Shown: positions 882-56,959 of the stretch, piece after piece | How positions within the stretch are numbered: position 1 is the stretch's first letter | How the letters are laid out: each line of letters starts with the position of its first letter | From: Candidatus Woesearchaeota archaeon | Lineage (GTDB): Archaea > Nanobdellota > Nanobdellia > Woesearchaeales > ARS49 | Assembly (NCBI GenBank): GCA_038891615.1 | Contig: JAWADY010000002.1 | Coordinates: 64,994 to 128,993, forward strand | Length of the DNA: 64,000 nt | Direction of reading: 5' to 3' | Notes under the pieces: model-generated | Seen by the model: the letters and a program-made list of their open reading frames with translations, nothing else | Told to the model about the DNA's origin: nothing | Databases searched by the model: none | Position numbers and translations under genes: made by a program

Positions 882-3800
882 GAAAAGAAGTTATTGGAAT
901 CTTTGTAGTGCTGTTCTTCGTAGTAATTGGAATCGCGGTCATTGCACAGGAAGAAAAAACAGGTTGTTGTTGTGATGAAAATGGAACTGCAATGGATTAC
1001 AGTCCTTTCCATACCCAAAATGAGTGCACTGATCCATTCACCATTCTTGTTCCACTTTCTTCAGAAAACATAAGCAAGTATACTCCTGACAACATCTCAA
1101 AAATATGTATAGACGCTTGTGGTGGTGCAGCCCCTAAGCCTTTACCATTGCCACTTGCTCCAAAAATAACTTTTTTTAAAGCAGAACCGTTGATGGGCCA
1201 AAAGAAATTTTTGCTCACCTGGGAGATAAATCAAACACCAAATGTCATCTATATAGACAGGTGCAAAGGAAATGACTGCACTAATTTTGGCAACATTGCA
1301 ACCTTTGCTGGAACCTCAAGGTCTTATGTCGATGATGATGCAAGCCTTGAGTGGCTAACAAATTACACCTACAGGTTGAGGATTGTCAATACAATTACAA
1401 GCCCACCACAAGAATCAAGCATGACAGCATCCTCAAGCCTTGGCGACATTGAGTGCTGGAATCGATTCGACAAAACTCCTTTCTGCATTTCAGAGTACTA
1501 CTATTGGAATGAGCCTATTCAGAGCTATCTCAAGAATTTTGGCTATTTTGGTTTCAGTTTCACTGATAATTTTGCAAGACAGGTGCGGACTGTTTTTGGA
1601 GTAACAAATCTTGACCACATAGGAAAGCTCGACTCAAGATGTCATGTGGTTGGCATAAACAGACTCAGTCAGTCTTCCTCAAGGTGCAAGAGCAACGAGA
1701 CTTGCCTTGTTGTGGATTCAAACACAATCTGCATAACCCCTTCACCTTGCGATACAAGCTTTAATGCAACCTCTGCTTCTTGTGAAAACACCCCTTCAGG
1801 TACTCCAAGCTATTGTTTCTCTGATAAGAGCCAAAGTGTTATTGAGCGCTGCTACAGTTGTGATAAAAGGATGAGCTGCTATGACTATCGTTCAAAAGAG
1901 GCCTGTGAGAGGGATGCATGCGGAATTGGAGATTGTATATGGAAGCCAACTTATGGAGCAATTGGAGTTGGAGTTTGCATCAATCCTTCTCAAAACAACT
2001 GTCTGCTTTGTGACAAGAAAACAGGAGACCTTCTTTCAGGCTTGGATTCAAAAAAATGGCCTAGTCTTTTGGCTTATAATGAGCTTTTTGACGCCTGCTC
2101 ACAGCTAAAGGCAGAAGCTCTTGGCAAATGCCTTGCCGTGACAGACCCTTCAACAGGAAAAACTTCTCCAAAGACTTGCGAACAAGCAACCTGCAGCGAT
2201 TATAAAACTCAGCAAGAATGTAATGCCGACACTTGTGGGTTGGGAATATGCAAATGGTTTGACTCACCCACCTTCCGCGGCTGTGCAAAGGATGCTGACA
2301 CCCCTCCTCAAGCCCCTGCAACAGATAGTGATGGTGATGGTATTCCTGATTGGTGGGAAATCAAGTATGGTTTGAATCCTAACAATCGTGATGATGCTGG
2401 TAGTGATTCTGATGGTGATGGCTTGAGCAATTTGGATGAATGGTTGCGTGGGACCCTTCCAAACAATCCTGATAGTGATGGTGATGGTGTCTCTGATCTT
2501 AATGATAATTGCCCTGGTACTCCTTCAAACACTTTTCAAGTTGATAGCAATGGGTGCCCTCTTCCTGTTAGTGATACCACTGATTCTGATGATGATGGTA
2601 TTCCTGATTGGTGGGAAAGAAAGTATGGTTTGAATCCTAACAATCCTGCTGATGCTGGTAGTGATTCTGATGGTGATGGCTTGAGCAATTTGGATGAATG
2701 GTTGCGTGGGACTCTTCCTAACAATCCTGATAGTGATGGTGATGGTGTTTCTGATCTTAATGATCAACATCCTGGTACTCCTTCAAACACTCAAGTTGAT
2801 AGCAATGGGCGCCCACCTCAAGGCAATGGCAAGCCGGATTGCATTGATCCAAACACAGGTGAAATAGATCCTGCGTGCGAAGCAGACAAGTGGTCACCTG
2901 AAACAGTCATTATCCCTGTGGGTGACAGAGGGGCTGTAAAATACCTATACATACAAATTACTGACCAGTTCAAAAGCACAGGTGAAAAATTAACTATTGC
3001 GCACTCTGGAACTGGAACAAAGGCAGAGTACTTTCCTAAAGGCTACAGCACTTTTCTTTGCGTTGGTAGCCTTTGCTCACCAAATGTTCGTGTGAACGCA
3101 ACTCCCTTGACTGTTGTAAATGGCTTCTTGACAATAAATGGTAAGCCTCTTGGACTGCAGCTTAAGGATGGTTCCAACATCTTAAGATTCTACTCACAAG
3201 ACCCTGCAAATAATAATGAACAAGTTAAGCAGCTAGAGGTGAATGCCTGCACAGGCTGTCAGGGACCTGCTCTCATTACTCCAATTGATATCGAAGGCGC
3301 AAGAATTGTAAATGGTGAGTATTATACAAAGCTAACACAGCCGCAAATAAAGCTATCCTTTGATGCAAAGGCAGAACTTGTTTTAAAGAGGCTTGTTTTT
3401 GGCAATTCTTTTACTGAGCTTAGCTCAAGCCCACAATCCGGCTTCAGCCAAAACTACACATTACTACCTCCTGAGCTAGCAGAAGCAAAGTATGTTCTGC
3501 AAATAAATGCTCGTGGAGAAAATGGAATCTCGAGCTCTAATACGCCTTACAGCTTCAATTTGACGATAGACAAAACCCCGCCACTCCTTTCATTCAATGT
3601 TGAACAAAACAGCATCTTAGAAAACCCAGACCAGTCTTTTGTGCTTAGCTTTAATGAGCCTGTCTTTGTTACTTCCATTTTTTTCGATGAAGAGCATGTT
3701 GCTCAAAATGGTCGCAAGTATGTTTTTACAAGAAATCTAACCTCTGAACTCAAGCAAGTGAATAGCAGCAAATATAACCTAACTGTTAATGGAATTCCTG

Positions 3801-6355
3801 ATGGGCATGTTGCGCTAAGAGTTACAGCAGAGGATTATGCCGGAAATACAATGGCTTCTGTGCTAAACTTTATTATTGACTCAACAGGCCCGGTCATTTC
3901 TCTGGCACAACCACTATTCGGAATTTCTGACAAGACACCATTTGACATTGTCGTTGAAACAGACCAGCCAGCTATCTGCAGATATTCAACAATTCAAAAT
4001 GTTGACACTGCGAGCATAAGCTATGATGCAATGGCAAAGTTCTACATACCTGAAAAACAAACCGCACAGCACATCATACAAGGCTTTGACGAGCTCACAG
4101 GAAAGCCAGAAAACACGCCCTGGAGGTTCTATGTTGTTTGCAAGGATGGCAAGCAACGCCAGTCTAACGAAACCTTCTGGCTGTCCGTTGATTCTGCTCC
4201 TCCAAAAATAACAGCTGCTTATGCAGAACCAAATCCAATCGTTGAGTACACAGACAGTGAGCTGCTAACAACACTGAAAGTCTCAACAGAACGCAGCTCC
4301 TTCTGCAGTTACAGCACAACAACCACGAGCTTTAGCCCTGAAAATGGTTTTGAAGGGACAGGCATAACTCCAAGGCAAGCGCACAATGCTGTGGTTAAAA
4401 TAACCACTTCTCCGACAACTTATAACATCGCTTGCATTTCACCAACCGATTATGGCAAAGCTGCGCCAAGAACAGCAACAGCAACAATAAAAATCACTGT
4501 TGACGTTGCAGCACCACTAACCATTTCCTGCAGCTATTGCCCTTCATTCTGGAATTCTACCACAAAAAACATATACCTGACCACAAACAAGCGCGCGCAA
4601 TGCTTCTGGACACTTGACAAGACAACCACTTCTTTTGGTACAGTTGGATATGAGCACAGCACCACTCTGAAAGTGCCATCTCTTGGCGAGAAAAAAGTGC
4701 TCTTTAGCTGCAATGCAGGCGCCCAAAGTGCAACCCTTGAGTATTCATTTCTTGTAGACAACAGCCCTCCTGTAATGCTCTATGTTAGTGATAACTCAAG
4801 CCTTAAAGAAGATACAGAGCATAGCTATTTCACAGATAGGTTAAGGGCAGCATGGCTCGGGCAGGATAATGAAAGTGGAATAACACGGTATTATTACTCT
4901 TTAATCGAAAAGGCAAACAACGCTGTTGTGATAAATTGTTCACCTGGCTCTCAACAAAACAATTGCCGATTCTCAACAGTACTTGATGGAAATTTCTTTG
5001 ACATTACGCAGGACCATAATGGAAAGTCGCTCAATTTAACAGACGGCTTTAGTTATTTCTTGAAGGTTTGGCCCCTAAATAGGGTTGGTCTTCTTGGAAA
5101 TCCAATGGACTCGGATGGAGTTGTAATAAACAAAAGCAAAAAGCCAGCTCACTGCAGCGATGGAATAACAAATGAAGGCGAATCAGGGCAGGACTGTGGT
5201 GGAGAGTGCGAGCCTTGTCCTGATGGTCAGCCTTGTAGGTCTGATTCGGACTGTCTCTCAAAAACCTGTATAGAAGGTTCGTGCAAGGCTCCGAGCTGTA
5301 CAGATTTAAGAAAGAATGGTAATGAAAGCTCAATCGATTGTGGTGGGAGCTGTCCAACAAAGTGCGAAGCTGGTAAAAGTTGTAACACTGACAGCGATTG
5401 CAAAACAGGACTAAGCTGTATATCTGGTGCATGCGCAGAACCAACAGCTTGCGAGAATGGTATACTTGATGGGCTTGAAACAGACATTGACTGCGGAAGG
5501 GTTTGTCCAACAAAATGCGCAGCTGGAAAGGGCTGTCTTGATAATAAAGATTGCGCTGATGGGCTATATTGTGTTAGTGGTGTTTGTTCTTCAACAACTC
5601 CAACCGCTGATTCTGATGGTGATGGTGTCACTAATGATCTTGACCAGTGCCCAAACACTCCGAAAGGTGAAAAAGTAGATAAAAACGGTTGTTCAGCAAG
5701 CCAGCGTGACACCGATGGAGATGGCATGAATGATGCTTGGGAGATACGCTATGGCTTTGATCCTGAGAATCCTGCTGATGCTTATACAGATGTCGATGCT
5801 GATGGCCTTAGTAATCTTGAGGAATTCAAGTTAGGAACTGATCCAAGAAACCCAGATACTGATGGTGATGGTTGGAGTGATGGGGCTGAGTTCAAGGCAG
5901 GAACAGACCCTCTAGACCCTGCCTCAAAGCCATCCGCCCCTATTGTGAGAGCTTTGCCATGGCTGTTGCTTGTTGCAATCCTTGCCATAGCCGGTTACGC
6001 AGCTTACAAGTACAGGAAGCAAATTGCTGCAATTTTTGTAAGGAAAAAGGTAATTCCTTTGCCAAAGCCGCCTGTGGTGTGGAGACCGCCACCAAGGCCT
6101 GTCCAAAGAGTTGTGCGTGTTCCAACAAGAGCAGAGTTAATCATTGAACAGCTTAGAAAGATTGCCCGAGCTACAAAGGCTGAAGAAGAGGAATACATTC
6201 CTGTAGAAGAGCTTGCCAGAAGGGCAGCTGCGCTAGAGCCAACAGAAGAAGTACTTAAGCATCTAAAGGCAGCAGTAAGAAAAAGCCCTGAGTTTGCAAG
6301 GGCTGCAGCTGCCCAGCCAAAGCTCAGAGCGATGCTCAAGAAAAAATCAAAATGA
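875..6355 (+). CDS. Giant cell-surface protein of 1826 aa. N-terminal hydrophobic signal/anchor. Central Cys-rich regions and Ig-like-looking stretches. Multiple TSP3 Ca-binding repeats (DxDxDGxxDxxD). Four tandem Cys-rich modules of about 45 aa. C-terminal single TM helix followed by a basic Pro/Lys-rich cytoplasmic tail of about 115 aa.
   Basis: Uninterrupted 5.5 kb ORF. N-terminus MLRKEVIGIFVVLFFVVIGIAVIA. Repeated DSDGDGIPDWWE, DSDGDGLSNLDEW and DSDGDGVSDLND motifs. CGGxCxxC..C..DSDC..G.C..G.C modules. TM segment ALPWLLLVAILAIAGYAAYKY near the C-terminus, then RKKVIPLPKPPVVWRPPPRP. Confidence 0.8.
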   Translation: MLRKEVIGIFVVLFFVVIGIAVIAQEEKTGCCCDENGTAMDYSPFHTQNECTDPFTILVPLSSENISKYTPDNISKICIDACGGAAPKPLPLPLAPKITFFKAEPLMGQKKFLLTWEINQTPNVIYIDRCKGNDCTNFGNIATFAGTSRSYVDDDASLEWLTNYTYRLRIVNTITSPPQESSMTASSSLGDIECWNRFDKTPFCISEYYYWNEPIQSYLKNFGYFGFSFTDNFARQVRTVFGVTNLDHIGKLDSRCHVVGINRLSQSSSRCKSNETCLVVDSNTICITPSPCDTSFNATSASCENTPSGTPSYCFSDKSQSVIERCYSCDKRMSCYDYRSKEACERDACGIGDCIWKPTYGAIGVGVCINPSQNNCLLCDKKTGDLLSGLDSKKWPSLLAYNELFDACSQLKAEALGKCLAVTDPSTGKTSPKTCEQATCSDYKTQQECNADTCGLGICKWFDSPTFRGCAKDADTPPQAPATDSDGDGIPDWWEIKYGLNPNNRDDAGSDSDGDGLSNLDEWLRGTLPNNPDSDGDGVSDLNDNCPGTPSNTFQVDSNGCPLPVSDTTDSDDDGIPDWWERKYGLNPNNPADAGSDSDGDGLSNLDEWLRGTLPNNPDSDGDGVSDLNDQHPGTPSNTQVDSNGRPPQGNGKPDCIDPNTGEIDPACEADKWSPETVIIPVGDRGAVKYLYIQITDQFKSTGEKLTIAHSGTGTKAEYFPKGYSTFLCVGSLCSPNVRVNATPLTVVNGFLTINGKPLGLQLKDGSNILRFYSQDPANNNEQVKQLEVNACTGCQGPALITPIDIEGARIVNGEYYTKLTQPQIKLSFDAKAELVLKRLVFGNSFTELSSSPQSGFSQNYTLLPPELAEAKYVLQINARGENGISSSNTPYSFNLTIDKTPPLLSFNVEQNSILENPDQSFVLSFNEPVFVTSIFFDEEHVAQNGRKYVFTRNLTSELKQVNSSKYNLTVNGIPDGHVALRVTAEDYAGNTMASVLNFIIDSTGPVISLAQPLFGISDKTPFDIVVETDQPAICRYSTIQNVDTASISYDAMAKFYIPEKQTAQHIIQGFDELTGKPENTPWRFYVVCKDGKQRQSNETFWLSVDSAPPKITAAYAEPNPIVEYTDSELLTTLKVSTERSSFCSYSTTTTSFSPENGFEGTGITPRQAHNAVVKITTSPTTYNIACISPTDYGKAAPRTATATIKITVDVAAPLTISCSYCPSFWNSTTKNIYLTTNKRAQCFWTLDKTTTSFGTVGYEHSTTLKVPSLGEKKVLFSCNAGAQSATLEYSFLVDNSPPVMLYVSDNSSLKEDTEHSYFTDRLRAAWLGQDNESGITRYYYSLIEKANNAVVINCSPGSQQNNCRFSTVLDGNFFDITQDHNGKSLNLTDGFSYFLKVWPLNRVGLLGNPMDSDGVVINKSKKPAHCSDGITNEGESGQDCGGECEPCPDGQPCRSDSDCLSKTCIEGSCKAPSCTDLRKNGNESSIDCGGSCPTKCEAGKSCNTDSDCKTGLSCISGACAEPTACENGILDGLETDIDCGRVCPTKCAAGKGCLDNKDCADGLYCVSGVCSSTTPTADSDGDGVTNDLDQCPNTPKGEKVDKNGCSASQRDTDGDGMNDAWEIRYGFDPENPADAYTDVDADGLSNLEEFKLGTDPRNPDTDGDGWSDGAEFKAGTDPLDPASKPSAPIVRALPWLLLVAILAIAGYAAYKYRKQIAAIFVRKKVIPLPKPPVVWRPPPRPVQRVVRVPTRAELIIEQLRKIARATKAEEEEYIPVEELARRAAALEPTEEVLKHLKAAVRKSPEFARAAAAQPKLRAMLKKKSK
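2324..2830 (+). repeat. Near-identical tandem duplication of two copies of about 258 nt inside the giant surface-protein gene. Each copy encodes an 86-aa TSP3-repeat block. A third degenerate copy is near 5608-5940.
   Basis: Copy 1 at 2324-2581 and copy 2 at 2582-~2830 share long identical strings (gattctgatggtgatggcttgagcaatttggatgaatggttgcgtggga...). The protein blocks are DSDGDGIPDWWEIKYGLNPNN...DSDGDGVSDLND and DSDDDGIPDWWERKYGLNPNN...DSDGDGVSDLND. Confidence 0.8.
5146..5590 (+). repeat. Four tandem Cys-rich modules of about 45 aa, encoded by about 135-nt units, in the C-terminal extracellular part of the giant protein.
   Basis: Protein segments CSDGITNEGESGQDCGGECEPCPDGQPCRSDSDCLSKTCIEGSCKAP / CTDLRKNGNESSIDCGGSCPTKCEAGKSCNTDSDCKTGLSCISGACAEP / CENGILDGLETDIDCGRVCPTKCAAGKGCLDNKDCADGLYCVSGVC share the same Cys spacing. 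Confidence 0.6.
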
Positions 6356-6852
6356 GACTTGGCCAAATAGTTGGGCAAATATTTCTTTTCTTGTTGGCAA
6401 CAATTGTTTTTGTTTTTATAGTTGTTTATGGCTATCGCGCAATAGGCAACCTTGTTGCAAAAGGTGAGCAAGCAGACCTAGTGCGATTCAACAGCGAGCT
6501 CAGTTCCGCAGTTAGTGCTATATCCCTTGACTATGGCAGCGTGCGTTGCCTAGAGCTCAGCCTTCCAAAAAGATATAGAACCTTTTGTTTTGTCGGGCAG
6601 GAGCCTGACATAGGCGCACTTTCCTTGGTCAGCCCATTAATTGCAAGTGCTGTCCAGTCAGGGATTAAGCAAAATGTTTTTTTAATCCCCCCTTCACCGC
6701 TTCAACTATATCTAGAAAAGGCAACGACAAAAGCAGAGGGAGGATTTTTTTGCATAAATACAAGCGGACCAACAAATCGCTTGCTACTCAGGCTTGAAGG
6801 TGGCGCAGGAGGAATTGCAGAGCTACAAAAATGGCAAGGAGCAAGCTGTTAA
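6352..6852 (+). CDS. Small pilin-like or membrane protein with a class III-like N-terminus (RLGQIVGQIFLFLLATIVFVFIVV).
   Basis: Start overlaps the stop of the giant gene (ATGA). N-terminal basic residue followed by G-Q and a hydrophobic segment of about 22 aa. Confidence 0.4.
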   Translation: MRLGQIVGQIFLFLLATIVFVFIVVYGYRAIGNLVAKGEQADLVRFNSELSSAVSAISLDYGSVRCLELSLPKRYRTFCFVGQEPDIGALSLVSPLIASAVQSGIKQNVFLIPPSPLQLYLEKATTKAEGGFFCINTSGPTNRLLLRLEGGAGGIAELQKWQGASC

Positions 6853-7820
6853 TTCCAAAGCACAGAAAAGGCCAGATAGAAGCGCCAGTAAGTTGGATAT
6901 TCATACTTATTGCAGGAGCTGTAATCCTTCTTTTTTTCTTTTCAACAACCATTAAGTTGCGTGACATTGCAAAACAAAAGCTTTCAATAACCCTTTTGTC
7001 AAACTTAGATGCACTCATCTCTAGCTCATCCGTTGCAAAAGGTACAAGCCAGCTGCTGCCGATTTATGACCAGCAACTTGTTTTTGAATGTACACAGGCT
7101 TGTCTTTGCGAGCTTTCAGTCCTTGGCGCAAAAAAGCCATTTAAAGACAGGCTGATTTTTGCTCAGCAAAAGGTTTTTGGAAGAAATGCGCTATTTTGGG
7201 CTCTTGACTGGAAGGAGCCATTCAGGATTGCTAATTTTCTTTACATAACAGACAGCTCAAGCAAATATTGGTTGGTTGGGGATTCGAGCAGCGAACCACT
7301 TAAGACAATAAAGTTCCTCCTTCCTAAGAATCTTAGTGCGGAGTTCGTAGACTCCACCCAAAACATCAAGCCAGGAAATTTCAAGAAAAGCAGGATTGTT
7401 CTTTTTGACAAAGCACTGGATGAAAGCCTTGCAGATAGTTTTCCCAAAGCATCTGAGCTAACATTACTTGTTGTCAACACCCAGAACAAAGAGCTTAAGT
7501 GGTACAAGAGAAAAGGTAGCAAGCTGGAAGTGCTGTCAAATGAAGGGGCGGATAACTACAAAAGCATTCCCCATCTTTTGGGAGCAATTTTTAGTGACGA
7601 GCCGCAGCTTTACGCCTGCCAACAAGCAGCTTCTGAGGACAGGAAAGCGGCCATAAAAGAAATCTATGTTGCACGTGTGCAAAAATTGATGCAAATTGTG
7701 CCAGAAGAACGTGGTTGCAGCGCGCTTTACGAAGAGACGTTCAAAAACATTAACGCTCCTGAGGCGCTTGAGGAGATTAATGAGGAATTGCTAAAAAAGA
7801 GTTGTCCAACAATATACTAA
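6831..7820 (+). CDS. Pilin-like protein with a class III signal peptide (RKG|QIEAPVSWIFILIAGAVILLFFF).
   Basis: KGQ motif followed by a hydrophobic helix, as in archaeal type IV pilin precursors. No other recognisable domain. Confidence 0.45.
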   Translation: MARSKLLIPKHRKGQIEAPVSWIFILIAGAVILLFFFSTTIKLRDIAKQKLSITLLSNLDALISSSSVAKGTSQLLPIYDQQLVFECTQACLCELSVLGAKKPFKDRLIFAQQKVFGRNALFWALDWKEPFRIANFLYITDSSSKYWLVGDSSSEPLKTIKFLLPKNLSAEFVDSTQNIKPGNFKKSRIVLFDKALDESLADSFPKASELTLLVVNTQNKELKWYKRKGSKLEVLSNEGADNYKSIPHLLGAIFSDEPQLYACQQAASEDRKAAIKEIYVARVQKLMQIVPEERGCSALYEETFKNINAPEALEEINEELLKKSCPTIY

Positions 7821-7821
7821 A

Positions 7822-8352
7822 ATGGCAAACAATGCATCTCCAAGCAAAAAGGCTCAGATAAAGATGTTTGAGAATATCGCTGTCCTCGTGATATTCTTTT
7901 TTCTTCTGGCTTTTGGTACAAGCTTTTACTTTACACTTCAAAAAAGTTCCCTTCAGCGTGAAATGGAACGCATTGCGCAGCTTGGAAACATTCAGCAGGC
8001 GCTTAGGCTTACATTCTTACCAGAGCTTGACTGCTCATTTGCTGCTGTACAAACTGAAAATTGTTTTGACAGGCTTAAGTTTGATGCTCTTGCAGATCAG
8101 CTTAAACCAGGTAGCCAGCGATGGCTTGAGTACTCTGCAATCCTTGGTTTTACTAGTATAAAACTAAAGACTGTTTATTCCAGCCTCTCTCCCCCGCCTG
8201 AAGAGAAACTTCTGTACGAAAGAAAGCTGAACGCAACTGCAATTCGCACAGAGATTCCTGTCTTGATTTGTGAAAACGGTTGCGACCCGCTAAATCAAAG
8301 CTATTCCTTCGGCATCCTTGAGGTGACAAGCTATGTTAGAAGGGCAACCTGA
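7822..8352 (+). CDS. Pilin-like protein with a class III signal peptide (KKA|QIKMFENIAVLVIFFFLLAF).
   Basis: KAQ motif plus hydrophobic helix. Tightly packed with its neighbours (2-nt spacing). Confidence 0.45.
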   Translation: MANNASPSKKAQIKMFENIAVLVIFFFLLAFGTSFYFTLQKSSLQREMERIAQLGNIQQALRLTFLPELDCSFAAVQTENCFDRLKFDALADQLKPGSQRWLEYSAILGFTSIKLKTVYSSLSPPPEEKLLYERKLNATAIRTEIPVLICENGCDPLNQSYSFGILEVTSYVRRAT

Positions 8353-8854
8353 TGGCATTGCTGTGTTGAAGGGATTAAAGAGAGCAAAAGGCGGGCAAAT
8401 GGAAATAATTGGTCTAACAATCATCATTCTTCTTGTTATAATTGGGGTGCTTTTTGGAATACAGTTTGTGCTCAAGGCAAAGCCGCCCACAATTGGACGA
8501 GAGTTTAGGGAATCGCAGTACGCAGCCAACTTCCTAAGCACTCTTACAGGTACAACAAGCGCATGTAATGGTTTGAGCATCACACAACTTTTACAGAACT
8601 GCGTGACAAGGACAGGGATTGACTGTCCATCAGGAAAGGGTGCTTGTGAGGAGGTTGAGGCTCTTATAGAAACAATCCTTGATAAAACAATTGGCAAGTC
8701 GGGACAAAACAGAGCATACCAACTTATGGTAAAAGGCAGCAACATTGACATTACTAAGTCTAATCGGGGAGGATGTCCGGGCGAAAAAGAGGTTGCAGAA
8801 CACACACTTCCAACAAGAGCTGGAGTAGTTTCTATACGCCTCGAGTTGTGCTAA
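8333..8854 (+). CDS. Pilin-like protein. The true start is probably the in-frame GTG at 8363 or the ATG at 8399, which would give RAKGG|QMEIIGLTIIILLVIIGV.
   Basis: Class III-like motif followed by a hydrophobic helix. The ORF-track start overlaps the previous gene by 20 nt, which argues for a later start. Confidence 0.4.
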   Translation: MLEGQPDGIAVLKGLKRAKGGQMEIIGLTIIILLVIIGVLFGIQFVLKAKPPTIGREFRESQYAANFLSTLTGTTSACNGLSITQLLQNCVTRTGIDCPSGKGACEEVEALIETILDKTIGKSGQNRAYQLMVKGSNIDITKSNRGGCPGEKEVAEHTLPTRAGVVSIRLELC

Positions 8855-8856
8855 AA

Positions 8857-10827
8857 CTATTTGCTAAAAGGATTTCTCATTTGCTTTGCTACCCAGACTG
8901 GGCTAAAATCTTCATAATCATTATCAGTAAGCTGCTCGAGCTTATCCTTTTCAATGTTGTAAACAAAGATTTCGCAATCTCTGTCTTTTTGTTTCTGTCC
9001 AAAACGAAACCAAGGGCAAGCAGAAAAGGCAATGCCTTTTGAGTCTTGCGACCAAGCAATGTTGTCCTCATTTACAAAAAAATTGTTTGGAATGCTAACT
9101 TTTTTGATGCTTAGTTTTGGCCAATCCGCTATATTGACAATGGTTACAATACTGCTCCCCTTATACCTTATTGCAAAATGTTTCAAATCTGGAGAGTTAT
9201 ACATTGCTAATGCCTGGTCTGGAAGTTTTGTCACAAATTTTGGCTTGTCCACACCGTTCTTACAAGATTCTTTTCTTTTTTTCTGGCAAGAGGCTAAGTC
9301 ATAAAGGGTGGCTTTCTCGAGTGCTAGAAAGTAAAGAAGGTTTTGGCTTTCACCTTTTGGATGATAAGGACTGGCTGCGAGGCTAAAGAACAAGCCAGGC
9401 TTTGCAAAAGTCAGTGCAGTAACATAATATCCCTTTTTTTCAAAAATCTTAAGTTTGATTGGGCTTTCTGATCCAAAGATTTTATAAGCATATATCTTGC
9501 CCTTCTTCTCATTGTTGGCATAAACGAGCCAGTTAAAATCAAACCACTCAAAGGCTTCCCACTCTGATTTGTCGTCGTACCCTGTTGATAAATTCTTTAT
9601 TTTGTTCTCTTCCGTCTTTAAAAGGGGAGCGAGCCTGATAGTCTTCCAGGACTTTTCTGCAACGCATCCACATTGTGGTGAGATCTTTATTTTGTGATAA
9701 AAGGATAACCCAGAACTTTCAGCAACATCCCCAAGCTTTGGAAAGAAGTAATGTAGTTTGTTGTCTATCACCACACCAACAGTTTCTCCATCGCTGCTTT
9801 TTATTAGGTTTTTGGCTTCCTTTTTTTTAAACACAACCACATTATGCGTTTCCTTTAATGGTGACCGTGGATAAACAAAGTTTATTCCGAAGTTGTCATC
9901 TAATCGTGAAATAAAGTATATTTTCTCATCAGTGACCAATGAAGAAAGCCAGATGAAGAATGAGGCTGTTGTGACAAACGCCGACCCTAAAAACCATTTC
10001 CTGTTTTTGCGCCACCAAAGATACCTGCACGCCTTTTTAGCGCTCCATCTTTTCTTTAGATTTGTTTGAAGAAAGCCAGAAATAAGTTTGCGAAGTGGAG
10101 CTTTTTTAAGTCGTTCATATTCTCCAGAAATTATTTTTTCTCGCAACCTTTCACGCTCAGCATCCTCAAAAGGAAAGCTACCAGTTATAAGCTTGTACAG
10201 TGCAACGCCTGCCGCCCAACTATCACTTTGTTGCGATGGCATAAAGCCTTTTAGTAGTTCTGGCGCACGATAGAGCAAGCTACCATAGCAAGGGCCGTAG
10301 TGTAGCTCCTTGCTGTTCGATAGTCCGAAGTCAACAATTTTTATCTTTCCTTCAGAAAGAATGAGGTTTTCAAGGCTCAGGTCACCATGTGTAACACCTC
10401 TTGAGTGCAAAAAGTCAAGTCCTTTACAAATCTGTTCCGCGCATTCAATGAGTTGCTTTTCATCGAGTTTGCCTGCAACCTCGCTCAGCTTTCTGCCTTC
10501 CACATACTCTTCAACAATAAATGGCAGGCCAGTCTTTTCGTCTATGTTAACAAAGTAGATTTTAGCAATATGTTCATGGCCTTTGCCGCGCTCCTCACGC
10601 AACTTTGTAAGAATTTTTGCCTCGCGCTCAAATGTGCTTTCAATGCTTACATTCCTATAAGCTGGAAATGAGCGCGAATGTTTCAGAATTTTTAGTGCAA
10701 CTGTTATGCCTTGTTGAGTATCATAAGCCTTCCAAACTTCTTTAAAAGCGCCGCCACCAATCTTTTCAATGAGTCTAAACTTACCGTTATTAAAAAAAGC
10801 ATTATCCTTAAATTCTTCTTCAGCCAT
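8857..10827 (-). CDS. Transmembrane eukaryotic-like Ser/Thr protein kinase. N-terminal cytoplasmic kinase domain, a single TM helix, and a C-terminal extracellular domain with TolB/PD40-like beta-propeller repeats.
   Basis: Kinase motifs IGGGAFKEV (Gly loop), VALKIL, HGDLSLENL (catalytic loop, atypical because it lacks the Lys of HRDLKPxN), DFGLS and YRAPELL. TM helix WFLGSAFVTTASFFIWLSSLV. C-terminal PD40-like segment DNIAWSQDSKGIAFSA...IFVYNIEKDKLEQLTDNDYEDFSPVWV. Confidence 0.75.
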   Translation of the reverse strand: MAEEEFKDNAFFNNGKFRLIEKIGGGAFKEVWKAYDTQQGITVALKILKHSRSFPAYRNVSIESTFEREAKILTKLREERGKGHEHIAKIYFVNIDEKTGLPFIVEEYVEGRKLSEVAGKLDEKQLIECAEQICKGLDFLHSRGVTHGDLSLENLILSEGKIKIVDFGLSNSKELHYGPCYGSLLYRAPELLKGFMPSQQSDSWAAGVALYKLITGSFPFEDAERERLREKIISGEYERLKKAPLRKLISGFLQTNLKKRWSAKKACRYLWWRKNRKWFLGSAFVTTASFFIWLSSLVTDEKIYFISRLDDNFGINFVYPRSPLKETHNVVVFKKKEAKNLIKSSDGETVGVVIDNKLHYFFPKLGDVAESSGLSFYHKIKISPQCGCVAEKSWKTIRLAPLLKTEENKIKNLSTGYDDKSEWEAFEWFDFNWLVYANNEKKGKIYAYKIFGSESPIKLKIFEKKGYYVTALTFAKPGLFFSLAASPYHPKGESQNLLYFLALEKATLYDLASCQKKRKESCKNGVDKPKFVTKLPDQALAMYNSPDLKHFAIRYKGSSIVTIVNIADWPKLSIKKVSIPNNFFVNEDNIAWSQDSKGIAFSACPWFRFGQKQKDRDCEIFVYNIEKDKLEQLTDNDYEDFSPVWVAKQMRNPFSK

Positions 10828-10878: not shown

Positions 10879-11763
10879 TTATCTTGTTTTCTGGATAACA
10901 GATGGTAAAGCAAGCGCAGGAAGCTGTATGCTCAAGTCGACTATAGAAGCAAGGTGAATGTTTTTCCAGCCGTAACGACGTATTTCCTCAAAAATTCTCG
11001 AAGCTTCGGTTGCCGTTTCCTGTTTTGCATCGAAGACAAATCTGTAGCAAGCGTCAAAAAGCTTGGCAGCCTTTTCATATTGTTTTACAATCTCCTGTTC
11101 AGGAACCGCGCGCTGCTTGACTATCTCTGCAGCAAGATACTTGCACTCGTCACCAATTCTTTCCACACTCCAGACAATGACTGCCTTACGCATAGCCTCT
11201 AGGTGTTCTGATATGACATTTTTTGCAAGATACCTCATGCAGTAATGTGCAAGCCTATTCACATCAATATCGCGCTGCTCTAGATGTTCAAGAGCAGTGT
11301 AATCCCAATTTCGAATAGCTTCTACCGAATCCTCAAGCATTCCTTTTACAAGAAGAAACAACCTCCGATAAAGTGCTGGAAATTCATCTTTTATCTGACC
11401 AGCAACATCACGCAAAATGCAATAGTTGCTCCTTTGTTCAACAGTCTCAAAACCAATTAGCTCAATGAGGGCTTTTTTGACGCGCTGAGGAGTTTCTGCT
11501 TCGAAGTTTGTGATTTTTATTTCATCATAGCCATCCTCATAAAGCCTGACAATAAGCCTTGGCAAGAGGACTCCTGCCTCAGGCGCACTTATTTCTTTGC
11601 TTTTGAAGACCTTTTGAGTGCTTGTTGGAGAAAGCGAAATAAAACCTGGTTGTTCTGACATTTCAATCTCATCTCCTTTCTTTATTCCATACTTTCTTGC
11701 CCATTTCGCAGGAAGACTTACCACAAGCGTTTGCTTGGAAAGCTGAATGACCTTTCTTCTCAT
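10879..11763 (-). CDS. Transcription regulator with an N-terminal SpoVT/AbrB swapped-hairpin domain fused to a PhoU-like domain (archaeal PhoU-type regulator).
   Basis: N-terminus MRRKVIQLSKQTLVVSLPAKWARKYGIKKGDEIEMSE is AbrB-like. The C-terminal helical region contains ERIGDECKYLAAEI, a PhoU-like motif. Confidence 0.6.
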   Translation of the reverse strand: MRRKVIQLSKQTLVVSLPAKWARKYGIKKGDEIEMSEQPGFISLSPTSTQKVFKSKEISAPEAGVLLPRLIVRLYEDGYDEIKITNFEAETPQRVKKALIELIGFETVEQRSNYCILRDVAGQIKDEFPALYRRLFLLVKGMLEDSVEAIRNWDYTALEHLEQRDIDVNRLAHYCMRYLAKNVISEHLEAMRKAVIVWSVERIGDECKYLAAEIVKQRAVPEQEIVKQYEKAAKLFDACYRFVFDAKQETATEASRIFEEIRRYGWKNIHLASIVDLSIQLPALALPSVIQKTR

Positions 11764-11901: not shown

Positions 11902-12393
11902 GTGAGAAAGATGTCTGACTTTCAAAAAAAGGATTTGGTAATAATAGCCCATCTCAGGCAGAATGCGCGGATGAAGCTAACAGCAATGTCAAGAAAAACA
12001 GCACTCCCTGTCTCAACAATTTATGACAGGTTACAACTTCATGAAGGAAAGACAATCCTAAAGCATTCGTCTCTCATTGACTTTTCAAGACTTGGCTTTA
12101 GTGCAAGAGTGAATGTTCTCTTCAAACTTGGAAAAACTGATAAACAGGAATTTGTAGCATTCCTATCAAAACATCAGAATGTCAACAGCCTTTACAGGAT
12201 TAATAATGGTTTTGATTTCCTTGCAGAGTGCATTTTTAAGAACATACGAGAACTAGAAGACTTTTTCGAACAACTTGATGCAAGGTTTGACATAAAGCAT
12301 AAAGAGGTTTACCATGTTATTGACGAGCTAAAGCGTGAAGCCTTTTTATCAGACCCTCAATTGATTGAGCTTGCAGGAATTGAAGCAGCCTAA
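11902..12393 (+). CDS. Lrp/AsnC family transcription regulator (HTH plus RAM domain).
   Basis: Typical Lrp layout: N-terminal HTH (DLVIIAHLRQNARMKLTAMSRKTALPVSTIYDRLQLHE) and a C-terminal ligand-binding RAM-like domain. Length 163 aa. Confidence 0.75.
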   Translation: MRKMSDFQKKDLVIIAHLRQNARMKLTAMSRKTALPVSTIYDRLQLHEGKTILKHSSLIDFSRLGFSARVNVLFKLGKTDKQEFVAFLSKHQNVNSLYRINNGFDFLAECIFKNIRELEDFFEQLDARFDIKHKEVYHVIDELKREAFLSDPQLIELAGIEAA

Positions 12394-12543: not shown

Positions 12544-12798
12544 ATGTCAAAAGGTCAAGGCATTTCAATTAATGTTATCATAATAGCTGCGATTGCACTG
12601 CTTGTTCTTGTTGTTCTTTCTGTTATGTTCATAGGCAGGATAGGACTCTTTGGAGTTAAGAGTGTTTCTTGCACAGAACAGGGAGGAACATGTTCTGTTG
12701 ATGTCTGCCCAGCAGGGACAAGGGAGTACACACCTTGGAGGTGCCCTGATACTCCTGAGGGGGCAAAGCAGCGCTGCTGCGTGGCAATAGGGGTGTAA
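12544..12798 (+). CDS. Mini-pilin: class III signal peptide (MSKGQ|GISINVIIIAAIALLVLVV) followed by a small six-Cys secreted head that ends in CC.
   Basis: KGQ prepilin-type motif, a 22-aa hydrophobic helix, an LFG motif, and Cys framework C-x8-C-x4-C-x11-C-x10-CC. Length 84 aa. Confidence 0.6.
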   Translation: MSKGQGISINVIIIAAIALLVLVVLSVMFIGRIGLFGVKSVSCTEQGGTCSVDVCPAGTREYTPWRCPDTPEGAKQRCCVAIGV

Positions 12799-12809
12799 GT
12801 GAATTTTCA

Positions 12810-13079
12810 ATGGCAAAAGCGCAAGGGCTGCCAATAAACACAATCATTATCGTTGCGCTAGCACTTGTTGTTCTTTTAGTCATTGCAGCCATTTTTACTG
12901 GTCGTATACAGCTTTTTGGAAGAGCGCTAAGCAACTGCCCAAAAGGAGAGGGGAAGTGGTGCACAGACAACCCTTCGGATTGCGCAGCTGGCAACGCAGC
13001 AGCAAGTCCGCTAAAAAATTGCAACGAAGATGCTGACCCTGAACCAGAAGGGAGCTATTGTTGCATACCATTGGCATGA
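12810..13079 (+). CDS. Mini-pilin paralog (MAKAQ|GLPINTIIIVALALVVLLVIAAIF) with a six-Cys head ending YCCIPLA.
   Basis: Same architecture and LFG motif as the upstream gene. Length 89 aa. Confidence 0.6.
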   Translation: MAKAQGLPINTIIIVALALVVLLVIAAIFTGRIQLFGRALSNCPKGEGKWCTDNPSDCAAGNAAASPLKNCNEDADPEPEGSYCCIPLA

Positions 13080-13366
13080 GAATGGGCAAAATGAGCGGAA
13101 AAAAGGGTGCTGAAGCCATTTGGTACATAATCGCGCTTGTCATTGGGCTAATAGTTCTTGTTGTGCTGGTAGCATTATTTACAGGAAAGGTAAAGCTGTT
13201 TGGCAAGGCAGGAGAAGAAATCGAAAAAGGTGTTCGTGGAAATCTTTGTTTTGAGCAGGGTTTTTGTGAAGCGGGCACTGCTTGTCCTCCTGGTTCAACA
13301 GCAATCCCGCGCCCTGCTGCTGGCTGGACAGATTGCACAGGGATTTGTTGCAAGCAAGTTGGATAA
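13076..13366 (+). CDS. Mini-pilin paralog (..KKGAEA|IWYIIALVIGLIVLVVLVALF) with a six-Cys head ending ICCKQVG. The start is probably the ATG at 13076, in an ATGA overlap with the previous stop.
   Basis: Same architecture (KLFG motif, six Cys, terminal CC). The ORF track extends it upstream into the previous gene, so it is trimmed here to the internal Met. Confidence 0.55.
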   Translation: MRMGKMSGKKGAEAIWYIIALVIGLIVLVVLVALFTGKVKLFGKAGEEIEKGVRGNLCFEQGFCEAGTACPPGSTAIPRPAAGWTDCTGICCKQVG

Positions 13367-13508
13367 AGTTTTTATACGCAAGAGCCACTTGATTTTTTAT
13401 GCACAAAAGAGGCGTTGAAAAAAGCACTTTGTTATACCTCATCCTAATCCTTATCTTTCTTGCGCTTGCAGCCTATATTCTTGTGAGAATTGCTGGGAGG
13501 ATTTTTGG

Positions 13509-14225
13509 ATGAGCCTGCTCATTGTCAGAAGGAAGGGAATAACAGAAACAGGATTAGTGGCAATAATCCTTGTCCTTGCCTCTGGCATTGTTCTTGGAGC
13601 TCTTGTCTATCAGTTTACTGTTAAGGGGAAGCAGGTTGGCTCTATCGAGCTTTGCAGACAGAATGTGCTAACTGCTAGCAAAGTTGTAGCGCTTGGCAAA
13701 GCAGATATTTGGCCAATCACCAACTGCTTTACAGAAGACCTTGGCAAACTTCCAGAAAAAGAAGAAGAAGCCATTACTCTGATTGCCGAGGGTATTAGGA
13801 AGTGCTGGTACATGTGGGGCGAAGGAAAGCTAACTCCATGGAGCTCTACATGGCTATCAAGAAACATCATGTGTCATGTTTGTACGATGTTTGAGCCAAG
13901 CGCAGAAGTGAGTATTGAAAAGCTTCATGGTTGGATGAGGACTCACAACATTCCTGGCAAAGAATTAACCTACTATGACTTTTTGAAAGAAGGCTACATC
14001 CCTTTCATCTATCCAGCACTTGAAGAAGAAGCCAAAGCCAAAAAAGTTGACCTCACAAAAGGAATGAAATGGGCTGTCTTTTATGCCTATGGAACGCGCG
14101 CGGATTGGCTAAGATTTCCCCTCATTGGTGGACTTGTGCTTGAAGAACCAAAACAAGGCGTTGCCTTCCTGCCGACAAATGAACTCGGAGGCATATGTAC
14201 ATATACTACGATAAAACTCAAATGA
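13509..14225 (+). CDS. Pilin-like protein with a class III-like N-terminus (RRKG|ITETGLVAIILVLASGIVLGALVY) and an extracellular domain of about 200 aa.
   Basis: Basic N-terminus, G at -1, T/E-rich +1 to +5, hydrophobic helix. No catalytic motifs. Confidence 0.45.
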   Translation: MSLLIVRRKGITETGLVAIILVLASGIVLGALVYQFTVKGKQVGSIELCRQNVLTASKVVALGKADIWPITNCFTEDLGKLPEKEEEAITLIAEGIRKCWYMWGEGKLTPWSSTWLSRNIMCHVCTMFEPSAEVSIEKLHGWMRTHNIPGKELTYYDFLKEGYIPFIYPALEEEAKAKKVDLTKGMKWAVFYAYGTRADWLRFPLIGGLVLEEPKQGVAFLPTNELGGICTYTTIKLK

Positions 14226-15145
14226 AAAGGGCGCAAGTAACAACACAGACACTCTTGGTAGTGCTCGTGCTTTTACTCGTAGCAGCTGTCATCTTTATTT
14301 CTTTTCAGACAAGACTCTTTGGCTTAGCAGAAGCCAAAAGTGCAAAGGATGTTTGCAAAACTTCTGTCTATGCCAATGCGCTGCTTGGAAGAAGTGTTGG
14401 AATCTTTTCTTCGGATATAAAATGTCCAACTCAGTATCTTCAGATAGACAATAGTGATGTTGCACATGCAAAGTTTGAGATTGCAAAAGCTCTGTCAGAT
14501 TGTTGGGAACAATTTGGAGAAGGCAGGCTTGAGCTTTTTTCTGGAGAAGGTGTTTTTTGTTCCGTATGTCATTTGATAACTTTTAAGCACAAAGAAAAAG
14601 CAATAAGCGGGCTTTTAGACTATCTTGCAACTAACAAAAAACCCCTTACTGACAAAAGCTATCTTGATTATCTAACAAGCTATCACACTTCAGGAAGCGA
14701 GGTTCTTAAGGCATATGCAGCTGAAAAGCTCCCGCCTGACATTCTTGACCCATCGCGAGGCAACACCTATGCAACAATCTTCTACTATGTCAAGGGTAAA
14801 GACCATGTGAAGGATGTTATTGAAAGAGCCCAAGCAGCAGCACCTGGCATTGGGCTTGAAGCACTTGGTATCGGATTGATAAAGGCAGGCAGTGCAACAG
14901 CTGGCTTGATTTCAGCAACCGGCATTGGTGCGCCTCTAGGTGTAGTTGTTGCAAAGGTCTCAACAATTGTCGGCGGAGTTTTGATTGTTGGCGGAGCAGG
15001 CTATGCCCTCCTCGCTGGTTGGTTCGGCGGAGTCCCTGTAGAATTCCTCTCACAAGTACGCCTCGAGCCTTACAACGAGCAAACGCTTAAAAACCTCGGA
15101 TGCCAAATCCTGCCTGCAGCTGAAAAAGCAGAGGTTGGAAGGTGA
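14222..15145 (+). CDS. Pilin-like protein (MKRA|QVTTQTLLVVLVLLLVAAVIF) with a C-terminal glycine-zipper hydrophobic segment of about 70 aa.
   Basis: The start is taken at the internal ATG that forms an ATGA overlap with the upstream stop. The C-terminal segment is GIGLEALGIGLIKAGSATAGLISATGIGAPLGVVVAKVSTIVGGVLIVGGAGYALLAGWFGG. Confidence 0.45.
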   Translation: MKRAQVTTQTLLVVLVLLLVAAVIFISFQTRLFGLAEAKSAKDVCKTSVYANALLGRSVGIFSSDIKCPTQYLQIDNSDVAHAKFEIAKALSDCWEQFGEGRLELFSGEGVFCSVCHLITFKHKEKAISGLLDYLATNKKPLTDKSYLDYLTSYHTSGSEVLKAYAAEKLPPDILDPSRGNTYATIFYYVKGKDHVKDVIERAQAAAPGIGLEALGIGLIKAGSATAGLISATGIGAPLGVVVAKVSTIVGGVLIVGGAGYALLAGWFGGVPVEFLSQVRLEPYNEQTLKNLGCQILPAAEKAEVGR

Positions 15146-15284
15146 TGAAAAAAGGCATATCCCGCGAGGCATTTGTTTACATACTCTTGGCACTTATTGC
15201 AATCCTCATTGGAGTAATCTTGATAATTTTTTGGGGAGGCGGGGCAGAAAAGGTCCTTAAGTCTCTTGGTTTGGGATAGCTCAA

Positions 15285-15641
15285 ATGGACAAAAAAGCTG
15301 TTGCAATAGAAACAATAGTCATCCTTCTCCTTGCACTTGTTGCTCTCCTTTTCTTTACAGTCCTTGGAGGAAAGCAGCTTCAATTGGGCAAGAAAATAAG
15401 CTTTTTCATGCCGGGCTGCCCAAAGGGTGTTTTAATAACCACAGAATGTCCATGTGATGGCCAAAAGATAAGTTCAGGTTATTGCTGTGATTTTGGACCA
15501 AGCCAAAAGCCTTGCTTTTGCGTAGAGCGAAATGTTAATAAGTGCGAGGATTACAAAAAGCAAGAGGATTGTGTAAGCAATCCTTGCCAAGTTCAAACTG
15601 CTTGCACCTTTGAACAAGGTGTTTGCAAAAGGGCTGGTTAA
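15285..15641 (+). CDS. Small Cys-rich pilin-like protein (MDKK|AVAIETIVILLLALVALLFF) with about 14 Cys in an 80-aa head.
   Basis: Class III-like N-terminus, with Glu at +5 as in type IV pilins. Cys-dense C-terminal region (CPKGVLITTECPCDG...CCDFG...CFC...). Confidence 0.5.
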   Translation: MDKKAVAIETIVILLLALVALLFFTVLGGKQLQLGKKISFFMPGCPKGVLITTECPCDGQKISSGYCCDFGPSQKPCFCVERNVNKCEDYKKQEDCVSNPCQVQTACTFEQGVCKRAG

Positions 15642-15645
15642 ATAA

Positions 15646-16071
15646 ATGGCAAAAAAAGGGGTAAGTGGAATACAGGTCGTCATAGCACTTTTGATTGGCA
15701 TCATAGTGCTCTATGTTGTTGTGGCTTTTATGCAAGCACAGTTCAAGAAGGCTGGAAAGAGTATCGAGGAAATAACTCCTTCCACAATCAGCTTTGCGCT
15801 GCAAGGCTGCAGGCTCCAAGCCGCACGAGGTTTTTCTGATGCAGATAAGGATGGATATCCCGACTTTTGTGATGTCTGCGAAGGCGGTGATGACGGAAAG
15901 CACAGCGATGCTGACTGGGTTCCAGATGATTGTGATGCGCATGAAAAAACAAAAGGGCTTCCTGCAAAGGAATGTGGTTGTGAAAAGCCAGAAATGGATT
16001 CTGAAGGCAGGCTGATAAAGAGCTGTGGGAGGCTTCTTTCAATCGAGCCATTTAAGTGCGCGAAAAAATGA
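15646..16071 (+). CDS. Small pilin-like protein (MAKKG|VSGIQVVIALLIGIIVLYVVVAF) with an Asp-rich TSP3-like Ca-binding motif and a Cys-rich head.
   Basis: Head contains DADKDGYPDFCDVCEGGDDGKHSDADWVPDDCD followed by several Cys. Confidence 0.5.
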   Translation: MAKKGVSGIQVVIALLIGIIVLYVVVAFMQAQFKKAGKSIEEITPSTISFALQGCRLQAARGFSDADKDGYPDFCDVCEGGDDGKHSDADWVPDDCDAHEKTKGLPAKECGCEKPEMDSEGRLIKSCGRLLSIEPFKCAKK

Positions 16072-16088
16072 ATTTGGTAAAATGAAAA

Positions 16089-18900: not shown

Positions 18901-18901
18901 A

Positions 18902-40454: not shown

Positions 40455-40482
40455 TAGTCCACCTCTTTTTGCAATTTAGCCC

Positions 40483-56875: not shown

Positions 56876-56959
56876 GCCTCCGTAGCTCAGTAGTGGAGCG
56901 ACTGCCTTGTATCTGTGCAAGAAAGCAGTAGGTCAGGGGTGCGAATCCCCTCGGAGGCT
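56876..56959 (+). tRNA. tRNA-Thr (anticodon TGT) with a 12-nt intron at the canonical 37/38 position.
   Basis: Acceptor GCCTCCG/CGGAGGC, D-arm GCTC-AGTAGTG-GAGC, and anticodon stem ACTGC/GCAGT enclosing 19 nt (loop CTTGTA + intron tctgtgcaagaa + A). Intron CAAG pairs with exon CTTG to give a bulge-helix-bulge-like structure. T-arm AGGGG-TGCGAAT-CCCCT. Confidence 0.7.

Follow-up and report, generated by a model that had tools for sequence, protein, structure and literature searches.

The DNA analysed here (the window) is a stretch of 64,000 nucleotides from a Candidatus Woesearchaeota archaeon, and encodes at 8857..10827 on the minus strand a receptor-type Ser/Thr kinase of 656 amino acids, with an ATG start and its stop codon at 8857-8859. 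Candidatus Woesearchaeota is a phylum within the archaeal kingdom Nanobdellati (the DPANN group). Because the identical 656-residue protein is encoded on 11 contigs, from three NCBI metagenome-assembled genome (MAG) assemblies and from Logan runs, the open reading frame (ORF) is not an assembly artefact, and it is a real gene. The identical protein carries the NCBI name 'MAG: serine/threonine-protein kinase [Candidatus Woesearchaeota archaeon]'; this annotation, the ORF call and the Pfam Pkinase match described below confirm the original prediction, made by a first reading of the window, of a Ser/Thr kinase ORF at 8857-10827. The protein is an already annotated Ser/Thr kinase of familiar architecture, and an ordinary type of signalling protein; what sets it apart is its DPANN host, its orphan ectodomain, a catalytic loop that is both non-RD and Lys-less, and the position of its gene. 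Its best other matches share about 25-35% identity and cover the kinase domain only. On the basis of its sequence and a structural model, it is predicted to have an N-in/C-out bitopic receptor architecture, with a cytoplasmic kinase, one transmembrane (TM) helix and an extracytoplasmic C-terminal domain, laid out along the gene as follows:

10015..10776, minus strand: Hanks-type eukaryotic protein kinase (ePK) domain, predicted cytoplasmic (residues 18-271; Pfam Pkinase)
10366..10389, minus strand: catalytic loop HGDLSLEN (residues 147-154), which retains Asp149 and Asn154 and has Gly148 for Arg and Ser151 for Lys
9931..9996, minus strand: single predicted transmembrane helix WFLGSAFVTTASFFIWLSSLVT (residues 278-299; from hydropathy)
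9070..9930, minus strand: orphan part of the ectodomain, beta-rich (residues 300-586), with no detectable homologue, repeat or confident fold
8890..9069, minus strand: PD40 repeat (residues 587-637) and first strand of a further repeat (residues 639-646), at the extreme C-terminus

The N-terminal domain matches Pfam Pkinase (PF00069) with 147.5 bits (E=6.3e-43; cut-off 31.7) over profile positions 2-262 of 263, as expected of the N-terminal ePK domain that had been proposed for it. Among NCBIfam models the PknB-type kinase model scores best, with 125 bits, and a sequence search of the PDB returned MELK, MARK and AMPK as top matches over the whole domain (E~1e-27). An AlphaFold (AF2) model, built with an alignment of 30 sequences, four of them kinase-TM-PD40 proteins, has a predicted local distance difference test score (pLDDT) of about 90 over residues 6-277, which adopt a bilobal kinase fold in the model; Foldseek places it nearest the kinase domains of CaMKII, MARK and AMPK (E~1e-18, TM-score about 0.8). 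Eukaryotic CAMK-like kinases (MELK, MARK, AMPK, plant CIPK/SnRK3 and CaMKII) are thus the best matches in both sequence and structure, at 25-35% identity across the entire domain and with similar C-lobe motifs, but their regulatory domains are not shared by the window kinase and their catalytic loop differs from its own. Since bacterial kinases score nearly as well, no specific eukaryotic affinity can be claimed: the bacterial protein P0019 reaches 97 bits, against about 100 bits for the best eukaryotic matches, which are plant CIPKs. Transfer of the kinase domain from a eukaryote to an archaeon is unsupported for the same reason. One apparently closer relative, P0002, was set aside, because two kinase domains together make up its high score.

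In an alignment of 30 kinases, the invariant or near-invariant columns retained by the window kinase comprise K46 (the VAIK Lys), E69 (the alphaC Glu), D149 (the HRD Asp), N154 (the catalytic-loop Asn), D166 (the DFG Asp), E190 (the APE Glu), D202 (the subdomain IX Asp) and R260 (the subdomain XI Arg). No residue required for binding ATP or transferring phosphate is thereby lost from the set regarded as essential. The C-lobe is complete in this alignment, with APE, DxWxxG and the subdomain XI Arg all in place. The sole near-invariant columns at which the protein deviates are 148 (Arg to Gly) and 151 (Lys to Ser), both within the catalytic loop; the HGDLSLEN sequence, with Ser for the canonical Lys, had been read correctly at the outset and occupies residues 147-154. 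Through Gly148 and Ser151 this loop departs from the canonical HRDLKxxN pattern. Among the 120 best matches, 117 catalytic loops read HRDxK, and the combination of Gly and Ser occurs only in the 656-residue kinase. The loop is a variant inside the Pkinase family and gives no reason for excluding the protein from it. A literature search on HGDL-type catalytic loops returned nothing directly relevant.

Catalytic loops of the HGDL[S/T]xxN type are characteristic of the RIO and Bud32 families, and the relatively high scores of Bud32 models fit with this resemblance. The best Bud32 model of NCBIfam gives 61 bits (E=1e-16) against a cut-off of 372 and spans only residues 49-172, a partial match to the N-lobe and the loop, while the RIO1 model of Pfam gives 21.3 bits and falls under its cut-off of 22. 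RIO and Bud32 kinases have neither the activation segment (APE) nor the distal part of the C-lobe; the window kinase has both, in addition to its TM helix and ectodomain. The presence of the activation segment and of the full C-lobe supports assignment as an ePK despite the Bud32-like loop, and a RIO or Bud32 identity is ruled out by Pkinase scores far above those of RIO1 and Bud32, by the full C-lobe, by the CaMK-like fold and by the TM helix. A best alignment to RIO/Bud32-type kinases, with no TM segment, had been named in advance as evidence that would overturn the assignment; what was found is 147.5 bits for Pkinase against 21.3 bits for RIO1.

The same loop bears on whether the protein transfers phosphate. 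A pseudokinase or ATPase-type switch, which would bind or hydrolyse ATP and serve as a scaffold or conformational switch with no phosphorylation of a substrate, would account for a loop unique among the 120 best matches and for a high Bud32 score relative to that of the PknB model (61/125 bits, against 50/301 and 30/182 in control kinases); Bud32 and Rio kinases have themselves been proposed to act as ATPases (PMC5007285). Against this stand the retention of the VAIK Lys, the HRD Asp and the DFG Asp, the three residues by whose loss pseudokinases are usually recognised, and of the metal-binding Asn154, the presence of the whole activation segment and of the substrate-binding C-lobe, and the fact that other kinases in loci with an AbrB-PhoU regulator gene, described below, vary the loop too (HGDLASGN, HRDIHDRN and HRDIRPAN). 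As the Lys and the two Asp residues are all present, we judge this explanation to be quite unlikely. From its conserved residues the kinase is atypical, with a non-RD and Lys-less loop, yet probably active; of the 'atypical kinase or pseudokinase' first put forward, the former description holds and the latter is unlikely, given that K46, E69, D149, N154 and D166 are kept.

Residues 278-299 constitute the only strongly hydrophobic segment of the protein (22 uncharged residues, mean Kyte-Doolittle hydropathy 1.6) and bear out the expectation of one TM helix, which begins about 7 residues past the kinase domain. The 20 residues on its N-terminal flank include 9 Lys or Arg, and the C-terminal flank is acidic; by the positive-inside rule, this predicts that the kinase lies in the cytoplasm and that residues 300-656 lie outside. 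The original prediction would have been undone by an ectodomain placed in the cytoplasm, and the rule predicts the opposite, C-out. The AF2 model has one helix at residues 263-296, leaving the kinase domain, and an alignment made with MAFFT brings segment 278-299 into register with the TM segments of bacterial kinase-TM-PD40 proteins from metagenomes. An alternative is that the kinase is soluble and cytoplasmic and uses a PD40 domain at its C-terminus to bind other proteins, comparable to kinase-WD40 fusions and with the hydrophobic stretch as a buried helix. This would be in keeping with the richness of this segment in Ser and Thr and with a mean hydropathy of 1.6, against 1.9-2.3 in the bacterial comparators. 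It is hard to reconcile with 22 uncharged residues flanked by a charge of +9 on the kinase side and a net negative charge on the other, with the alignment to the comparators' TM segments, with the one long helix that AF2 draws out of the kinase domain, or with the even number (6) of Cys residues in the distal domain, and we regard it as very improbable.

The order of N-terminal kinase, TM segment and C-terminal ectodomain is the same in bacterial kinase-TM-PD40/TolB-like proteins (P0060, P0096, P0116 and P0119) and in PknD, which carries an NHL propeller. The PD40 repeat is common to the window kinase and the bacterial kinase-TM-PD40 proteins, and with this layout and the aligned TM segments the parallel that had been drawn with bacterial PknB-type sensors is sustained. 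Indeed, the combination of a kinase, a TM helix and a beta-propeller-type sensor is well known in bacteria. The window kinase differs from these proteins in its archaeal (DPANN) host, in its ectodomain of 357 residues as against 530-620 in the bacterial kinase-TM-PD40 comparators, in a juxtamembrane linker of about 7 residues as against about 40, and in its HGDLSLEN loop as against the HRDLKPxN of bacterial receptor kinases. In addition, the bacterial comparator P0060 matches the TolB model TIGR02800 at 2e-34, whereas the window kinase has no TolB match and a single recognisable repeat.

The ectodomain, a C-terminal domain of 357 residues with six Cys in all, matches Pfam PD40 at a single site with 13.9 bits (E=0.056), under the cut-off of 20.9 bits, and the TolB models of NCBIfam have no match in the 656-residue protein. 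A word-index search with the ectodomain alone missed even the query protein, and an exhaustive HMMER search was used instead. Among 1.84 billion representatives, this search returned 264 proteins at E<=1e-3 (best 5e-14), and coverage mapping showed that all 264 align only to residues ~580-655, each matched protein pairing several of its own repeats with the one query stretch. All ten of the matches checked (10/10) are PD40-repeat proteins. A single-repeat PD40 hidden Markov model (HMM), made from the repeats of the matched proteins and independent of the query, recognises one repeat in the query, at residues 587-637, with 31.9 bits. It also picks out fragments at residues 639-646 and 301-315, with scores of about 0 bits. 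Propellers close through a repeat whose two parts sit at opposite ends of the domain, and it is suggestive that these two fragments could form such a split repeat closing a ring, although scores of about 0 bits carry no weight alone.

Upstream of the C-terminal repeat, the sequence is of a different kind. The exhaustive search found no homologue of residues 300-584 among the 1.84 billion representatives, pairwise tests found no internal repeats in them, and no ORF similar to the orphan part of the ectodomain occurs in the window or in the 41 loci fetched for comparison. HHalign scores residues 300-584 at 16.2 against a PD40-propeller profile, which does not set them apart from shuffled sequences (12.1 +/- 2.2), and AF2 gives pLDDT values of 25-56 over residues 300-656 with and without an alignment (pLDDT 31 in the single-sequence run). 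A full PD40 propeller is not demonstrated by the sequence, in which the PD40-like part is confined to the final ~60-70 residues: Pfam, NCBIfam, the repeat HMM, HHalign and the repeat tests are all negative upstream of ~580, and one repeat is recognisable where a PD40 propeller typically has 5 or more. The TolB/PD40 propeller first proposed for this domain is therefore supported in part, for the PD40 repeat at residues 587-637 and not for a TolB match or for residues 300-586. Since a single PD40 blade is unable to fold by itself, the simplest reading, which we hold to be reasonably probable, is that diverged blades lie upstream.

The kinase gene lies between two clusters of pilin-like genes and beside two genes for transcription regulators, as Pfam matches and N-terminal patterns bear out for the setting first described:

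10879..11763, minus strand: AbrB(SpoVT/MazE-like)-PhoU transcription regulator (Pfam PhoU E=1e-7, MazE_antitoxin E=4e-7)
11902..12393, plus strand: Lrp/AsnC regulator, divergent from the AbrB-PhoU gene (Pfam AsnC_trans_reg and HTH_AsnC)
12544..19870, plus strand: pilin cluster 2, made up of three Cys-rich small pilins at 12544-13366 and, at 13509-19870, nine pilin-like genes of larger size
875..8854, plus strand: cluster 1, headed by the gene for a 1826-residue surface protein with TSP3 repeats, after which come four pilin-like genes; it runs convergently towards the 3' end of the kinase gene

The AbrB-PhoU gene ends 51 nt before the kinase gene starts and is read in the same direction; its product is a candidate partner or substrate of the kinase. 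A class III signal-peptide pattern, consisting of a short basic N-region, a [KR][GA] site, and a polar and then a ~20-residue hydrophobic stretch, is seen in all three small flanking genes and in 12 of the 13 larger ones. By this N-terminal pattern the flanking genes resemble archaeal type IV pilins; the pilin-like genes matched no Pfam family. Elsewhere in the 64-kb window there is no paralogous kinase, no other PD40 protein and no homologue of the TPR/APH-like proteins described below.

Several features of the two clusters were observed in passing. The three small genes of cluster 2 (12544-12798, 12810-13079 and 13091-13366, plus strand) lie in tandem and encode Cys-rich proteins of 84-91 residues with KGQG/KAQG-type N-termini; they fall below the 100-residue threshold of the ORF listing, and their products are probably the major pilins, judging from sequence. 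Homologues of these small pilins occur in loci L010, L037 and L040 of the set described below. At 13509-15145 (plus strand) there are two adjacent pilin-like paralogues with a common CW..[FW]GEG[KR]L ... C.VC motif, whose homologues in other metagenomes (P0272-P0275; 26-54% identity) belong to no described family. The 1826-residue protein that heads cluster 1 (875-6355, plus strand) contains 78 Cys residues and repeats of the bacterial TSP3 and Big_13 types, has a signal-like segment at its N-terminus and a TM helix at its C-terminus, and is probably a giant surface adhesin; its homologues are found in L010 and L025.

As the kinase has no orthologue in the databases searched, its neighbour genes were used as anchors for the comparison of loci. 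Homologues of the AbrB-PhoU gene were fetched from genomes and metagenomes (32 loci), and homologues of one cluster-2 protein were traced to their contigs. Two loci, L037 and L010, are syntenic with the window: L037 shares with the window, in unchanged order, AbrB-PhoU (at 32% identity), Lrp (at 47%), the small pilins (at 44-55%) and genes of cluster 2, and L010 contains Lrp, AbrB-PhoU and both pilin clusters. The order of cluster 2 is kept in L037 and partly in L010, L038 and L040, and homologues of cluster 1 occur in the same order in L010 and L030. The divergent Lrp/AbrB-PhoU pair is found in at least 10 archaeal loci (L003, L005, L007, L010, L016, L020/21, L022, L023, L031 and L037), with Lrp proteins 39-55% identical to that of the window; in the window, L010 and L037 it heads a conserved pilin operon.

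In many of the loci with an AbrB-PhoU gene, the position directly after AbrB-PhoU (the slot) is occupied by a gene for a protein with a kinase-like or other nucleotide-binding fold:

L010, 6889-8745, minus strand: TPR/APH-like slot gene (618 residues; Pfam APH E=8e-5, C-terminal; motifs DAHPENWLI and VLDCEN)
L037, 4544-6481, plus strand: TPR/APH-like slot gene (645 residues; phmmer ~1e-6 to the L010 protein; APH E=0.025)
L013, 6881-8386, minus strand: TPR/APH-like gene, next after AbrB-PhoU
L016, 6901-8745, minus strand: TPR/APH-like gene, next after AbrB-PhoU
L020 (L020/21), 6927-8657, minus strand: TPR/APH-like gene, next after AbrB-PhoU
L031, 8300-11068, minus strand: TPR/APH-like gene, following a Pkinase gene
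L001, 10902-12020, minus strand: Pkinase gene next to AbrB-PhoU, loop HGDIKPEN
L011, 6992-10489, minus strand: Pkinase gene next to AbrB-PhoU, loop HGDLASGN
L031, 6945-8339 and 10828-12135, minus strand: Pkinase genes, loops HRDIHDRN (next after AbrB-PhoU) and HRDIRPAN
L012, 888-2648, and L024, 1100-2536, minus strand: LRR or other protein with a guanylate-kinase-like P-loop domain, after AbrB-PhoU

With the window counted, about 19 loci extend far enough downstream to be scored, and in 9 of them a gene with a kinase-like fold comes directly after AbrB-PhoU. Kinase-fold genes make up about 1% of genes or fewer (our own estimate, not a genome-wide computation), and given this figure the frequency in the slot is far above chance. 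The L010 slot gene runs convergently with the regulator gene, on the strand of the pilin-like genes of cluster 1 and 31 nt past them. HHalign of the 645-residue L037 protein against a kinase alignment scores 30.3, with shuffled sequences at 16.3 +/- 3.4. Related genomes thus hold a cytoplasmic TPR/APH-like protein where the window has its kinase, and on this ground the receptor kinase is apparently a non-orthologous replacement of that cytoplasmic partner. Departures from HRDLK seem to be common in archaeal kinases adjoining AbrB-PhoU, to judge from the loops listed.

The TPR/APH-like proteins of the slot form a family of 500-920 residues, TPR-like towards the N-terminus and ending in a kinase-like domain of APH type (DxHxxN ... 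D), and none of them is annotated. In L012 and L024 a different nucleotide-binding fold occupies the kinase slot. A clade of 'AbrB-PhoU-associated' ePKs that would include the window kinase was considered and rejected, the L001 and L011 kinases being more distant from it than are plant CIPKs. A literature search for links between AbrB-PhoU and kinases in archaea returned nothing directly relevant.

Taken together, these results lead us to favour, with modest confidence, a bitopic receptor ePK that senses through its ectodomain and acts on AbrB-PhoU to tune expression of the pilus or surface apparatus. The outward-facing C-terminal domain, whether a diverged beta-propeller or another beta-rich sensor, would bind an external ligand or surface, and ligand-driven clustering would turn the kinase on, as in PknB/PknD-type kinases; phosphorylation of the activation loop would probably be unneeded, as this is a non-RD kinase. 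The active kinase would then phosphorylate the adjoining AbrB-PhoU protein, and possibly Lrp. Because these regulators sit at the head of the conserved pilin operon, their phosphorylation would adjust how strongly the pilus or surface apparatus is expressed, and a receptor in place of a cytoplasmic TPR/APH-like protein would move the input from the inside of the cell to the outside. Control of the apparatus by the kinase, which we infer, is plausible, and is strengthened by the conserved locus and the recurrent kinase-fold slot.

Precedents for phosphorylation of such regulators make the output steps plausible. The Hanks-type kinases PrkC, PrkD and YabT of B. subtilis phosphorylate AbrB, and PknD of M. 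tuberculosis has a beta-propeller ectodomain (PMC6213207). The regulator in the window is an AbrB-PhoU fusion, as against the AbrB-family regulator of B. subtilis. In that bacterium, the genes for the AbrB-phosphorylating kinases and for the regulator are not neighbours. In Sulfolobus acidocaldarius, the archaeal ePKs ArnC and ArnD phosphorylate the archaellum repressor ArnB, and so regulate a type-IV-pilus-like structure through phosphorylation of a regulator (PMC5300886). The parallel drawn with the window kinase concerns its role. The Arn substrates ArnA and ArnB, with FHA and vWA domains, are absent from the kinase locus, where the candidate partners are AbrB-PhoU and Lrp.

A number of observations weigh against the proposed receptor acting on AbrB-PhoU. 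No orthologue of the 656-residue kinase was found in the databases searched, and HHalign, AF2 and the repeat tests leave most of the ectodomain without evidence of a fold. The loop Lys that contacts the gamma-phosphate is absent, with no compensating basic residue visible in the loop, and by its sequence the phosphotransfer activity of the kinase may be low. No second kinase, phosphatase or FHA protein turned up near the gene in a search aimed at kinase and PD40 only. The window kinase is co-directional with the regulator gene, whereas the other slot genes are convergent with it; the slot kinases are not closely related among themselves, nor are the others close to the window kinase, to which they score 49-58 bits where plant CIPKs reach about 100 bits. 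The pilin-linked loci L030 and L025 have no slot kinase. Finally, most AbrB-PhoU/kinase loci have no pilin-like genes nearby, and the AbrB-PhoU/kinase module is therefore not pilus-specific.

Some of these observations would be expected if the protein were a receptor kinase whose location between the pilin clusters is incidental and whose targets lie elsewhere, in general stress, nutrient or host-contact signalling. The protein is an orphan with no conserved synteny of its own, and its orientation, the two pilin-linked loci with an empty slot and the AbrB-PhoU/kinase pairs found mostly away from pilin genes all suit such an origin. Chance placement agrees poorly, however, with a kinase-fold gene right after AbrB-PhoU in 9 of about 19 loci, where about 1 in 100 or fewer is estimated, and with a kinase gene 51 nt downstream of a co-directional regulator gene. 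We consider an incidental location possible but doubtful.

How DPANN archaea transduce signals has hardly been studied, and most of what is known on how archaea regulate type IV pili comes from Sulfolobus. If true, a link from a membrane receptor kinase to regulators of a pilin operon would offer a concrete way into the decisions on surface appendages in tiny, probably host-dependent cells. The more novel element may be the module of Lrp, AbrB-PhoU and a kinase-fold protein, and the recurrent pairing of AbrB-PhoU with a kinase fold may be a general archaeal regulatory module. This pairing is absent from a 2016 census of archaeal type IV pili, which contains no mention of Lrp, PhoU or DPANN and refers to kinases only twice (PMC4858521). 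A bolder and rather unlikely extension is that Woesearchaeota-like and other archaea share a conserved triad of Lrp, AbrB-PhoU and an interchangeable kinase-fold protein; most loci would use a cytoplasmic TPR/APH-like protein as this third member, and others a Pkinase. Here the third component would be the receptor kinase, and an external cue, possibly host contact, would control the pilus or adhesin of an episymbiotic DPANN cell through phosphorylation of AbrB-PhoU.

Two further features of the window lie apart from the kinase locus. At 38265-42780 (minus strand), a T2SSE-family (PilB/FlaI-like) ATPase of 765 residues is encoded beside a 729-residue protein that has no Pfam match and is a possible membrane platform; judging from sequence, the pair may be pilus assembly machinery, ~30 kb from the pilin clusters. 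Rfam identifies an 84-nt tRNA at 56876-56959 (plus strand; 57.7 bits) that ARAGORN does not report, and which may be an intron-containing or otherwise atypical archaeal tRNA.

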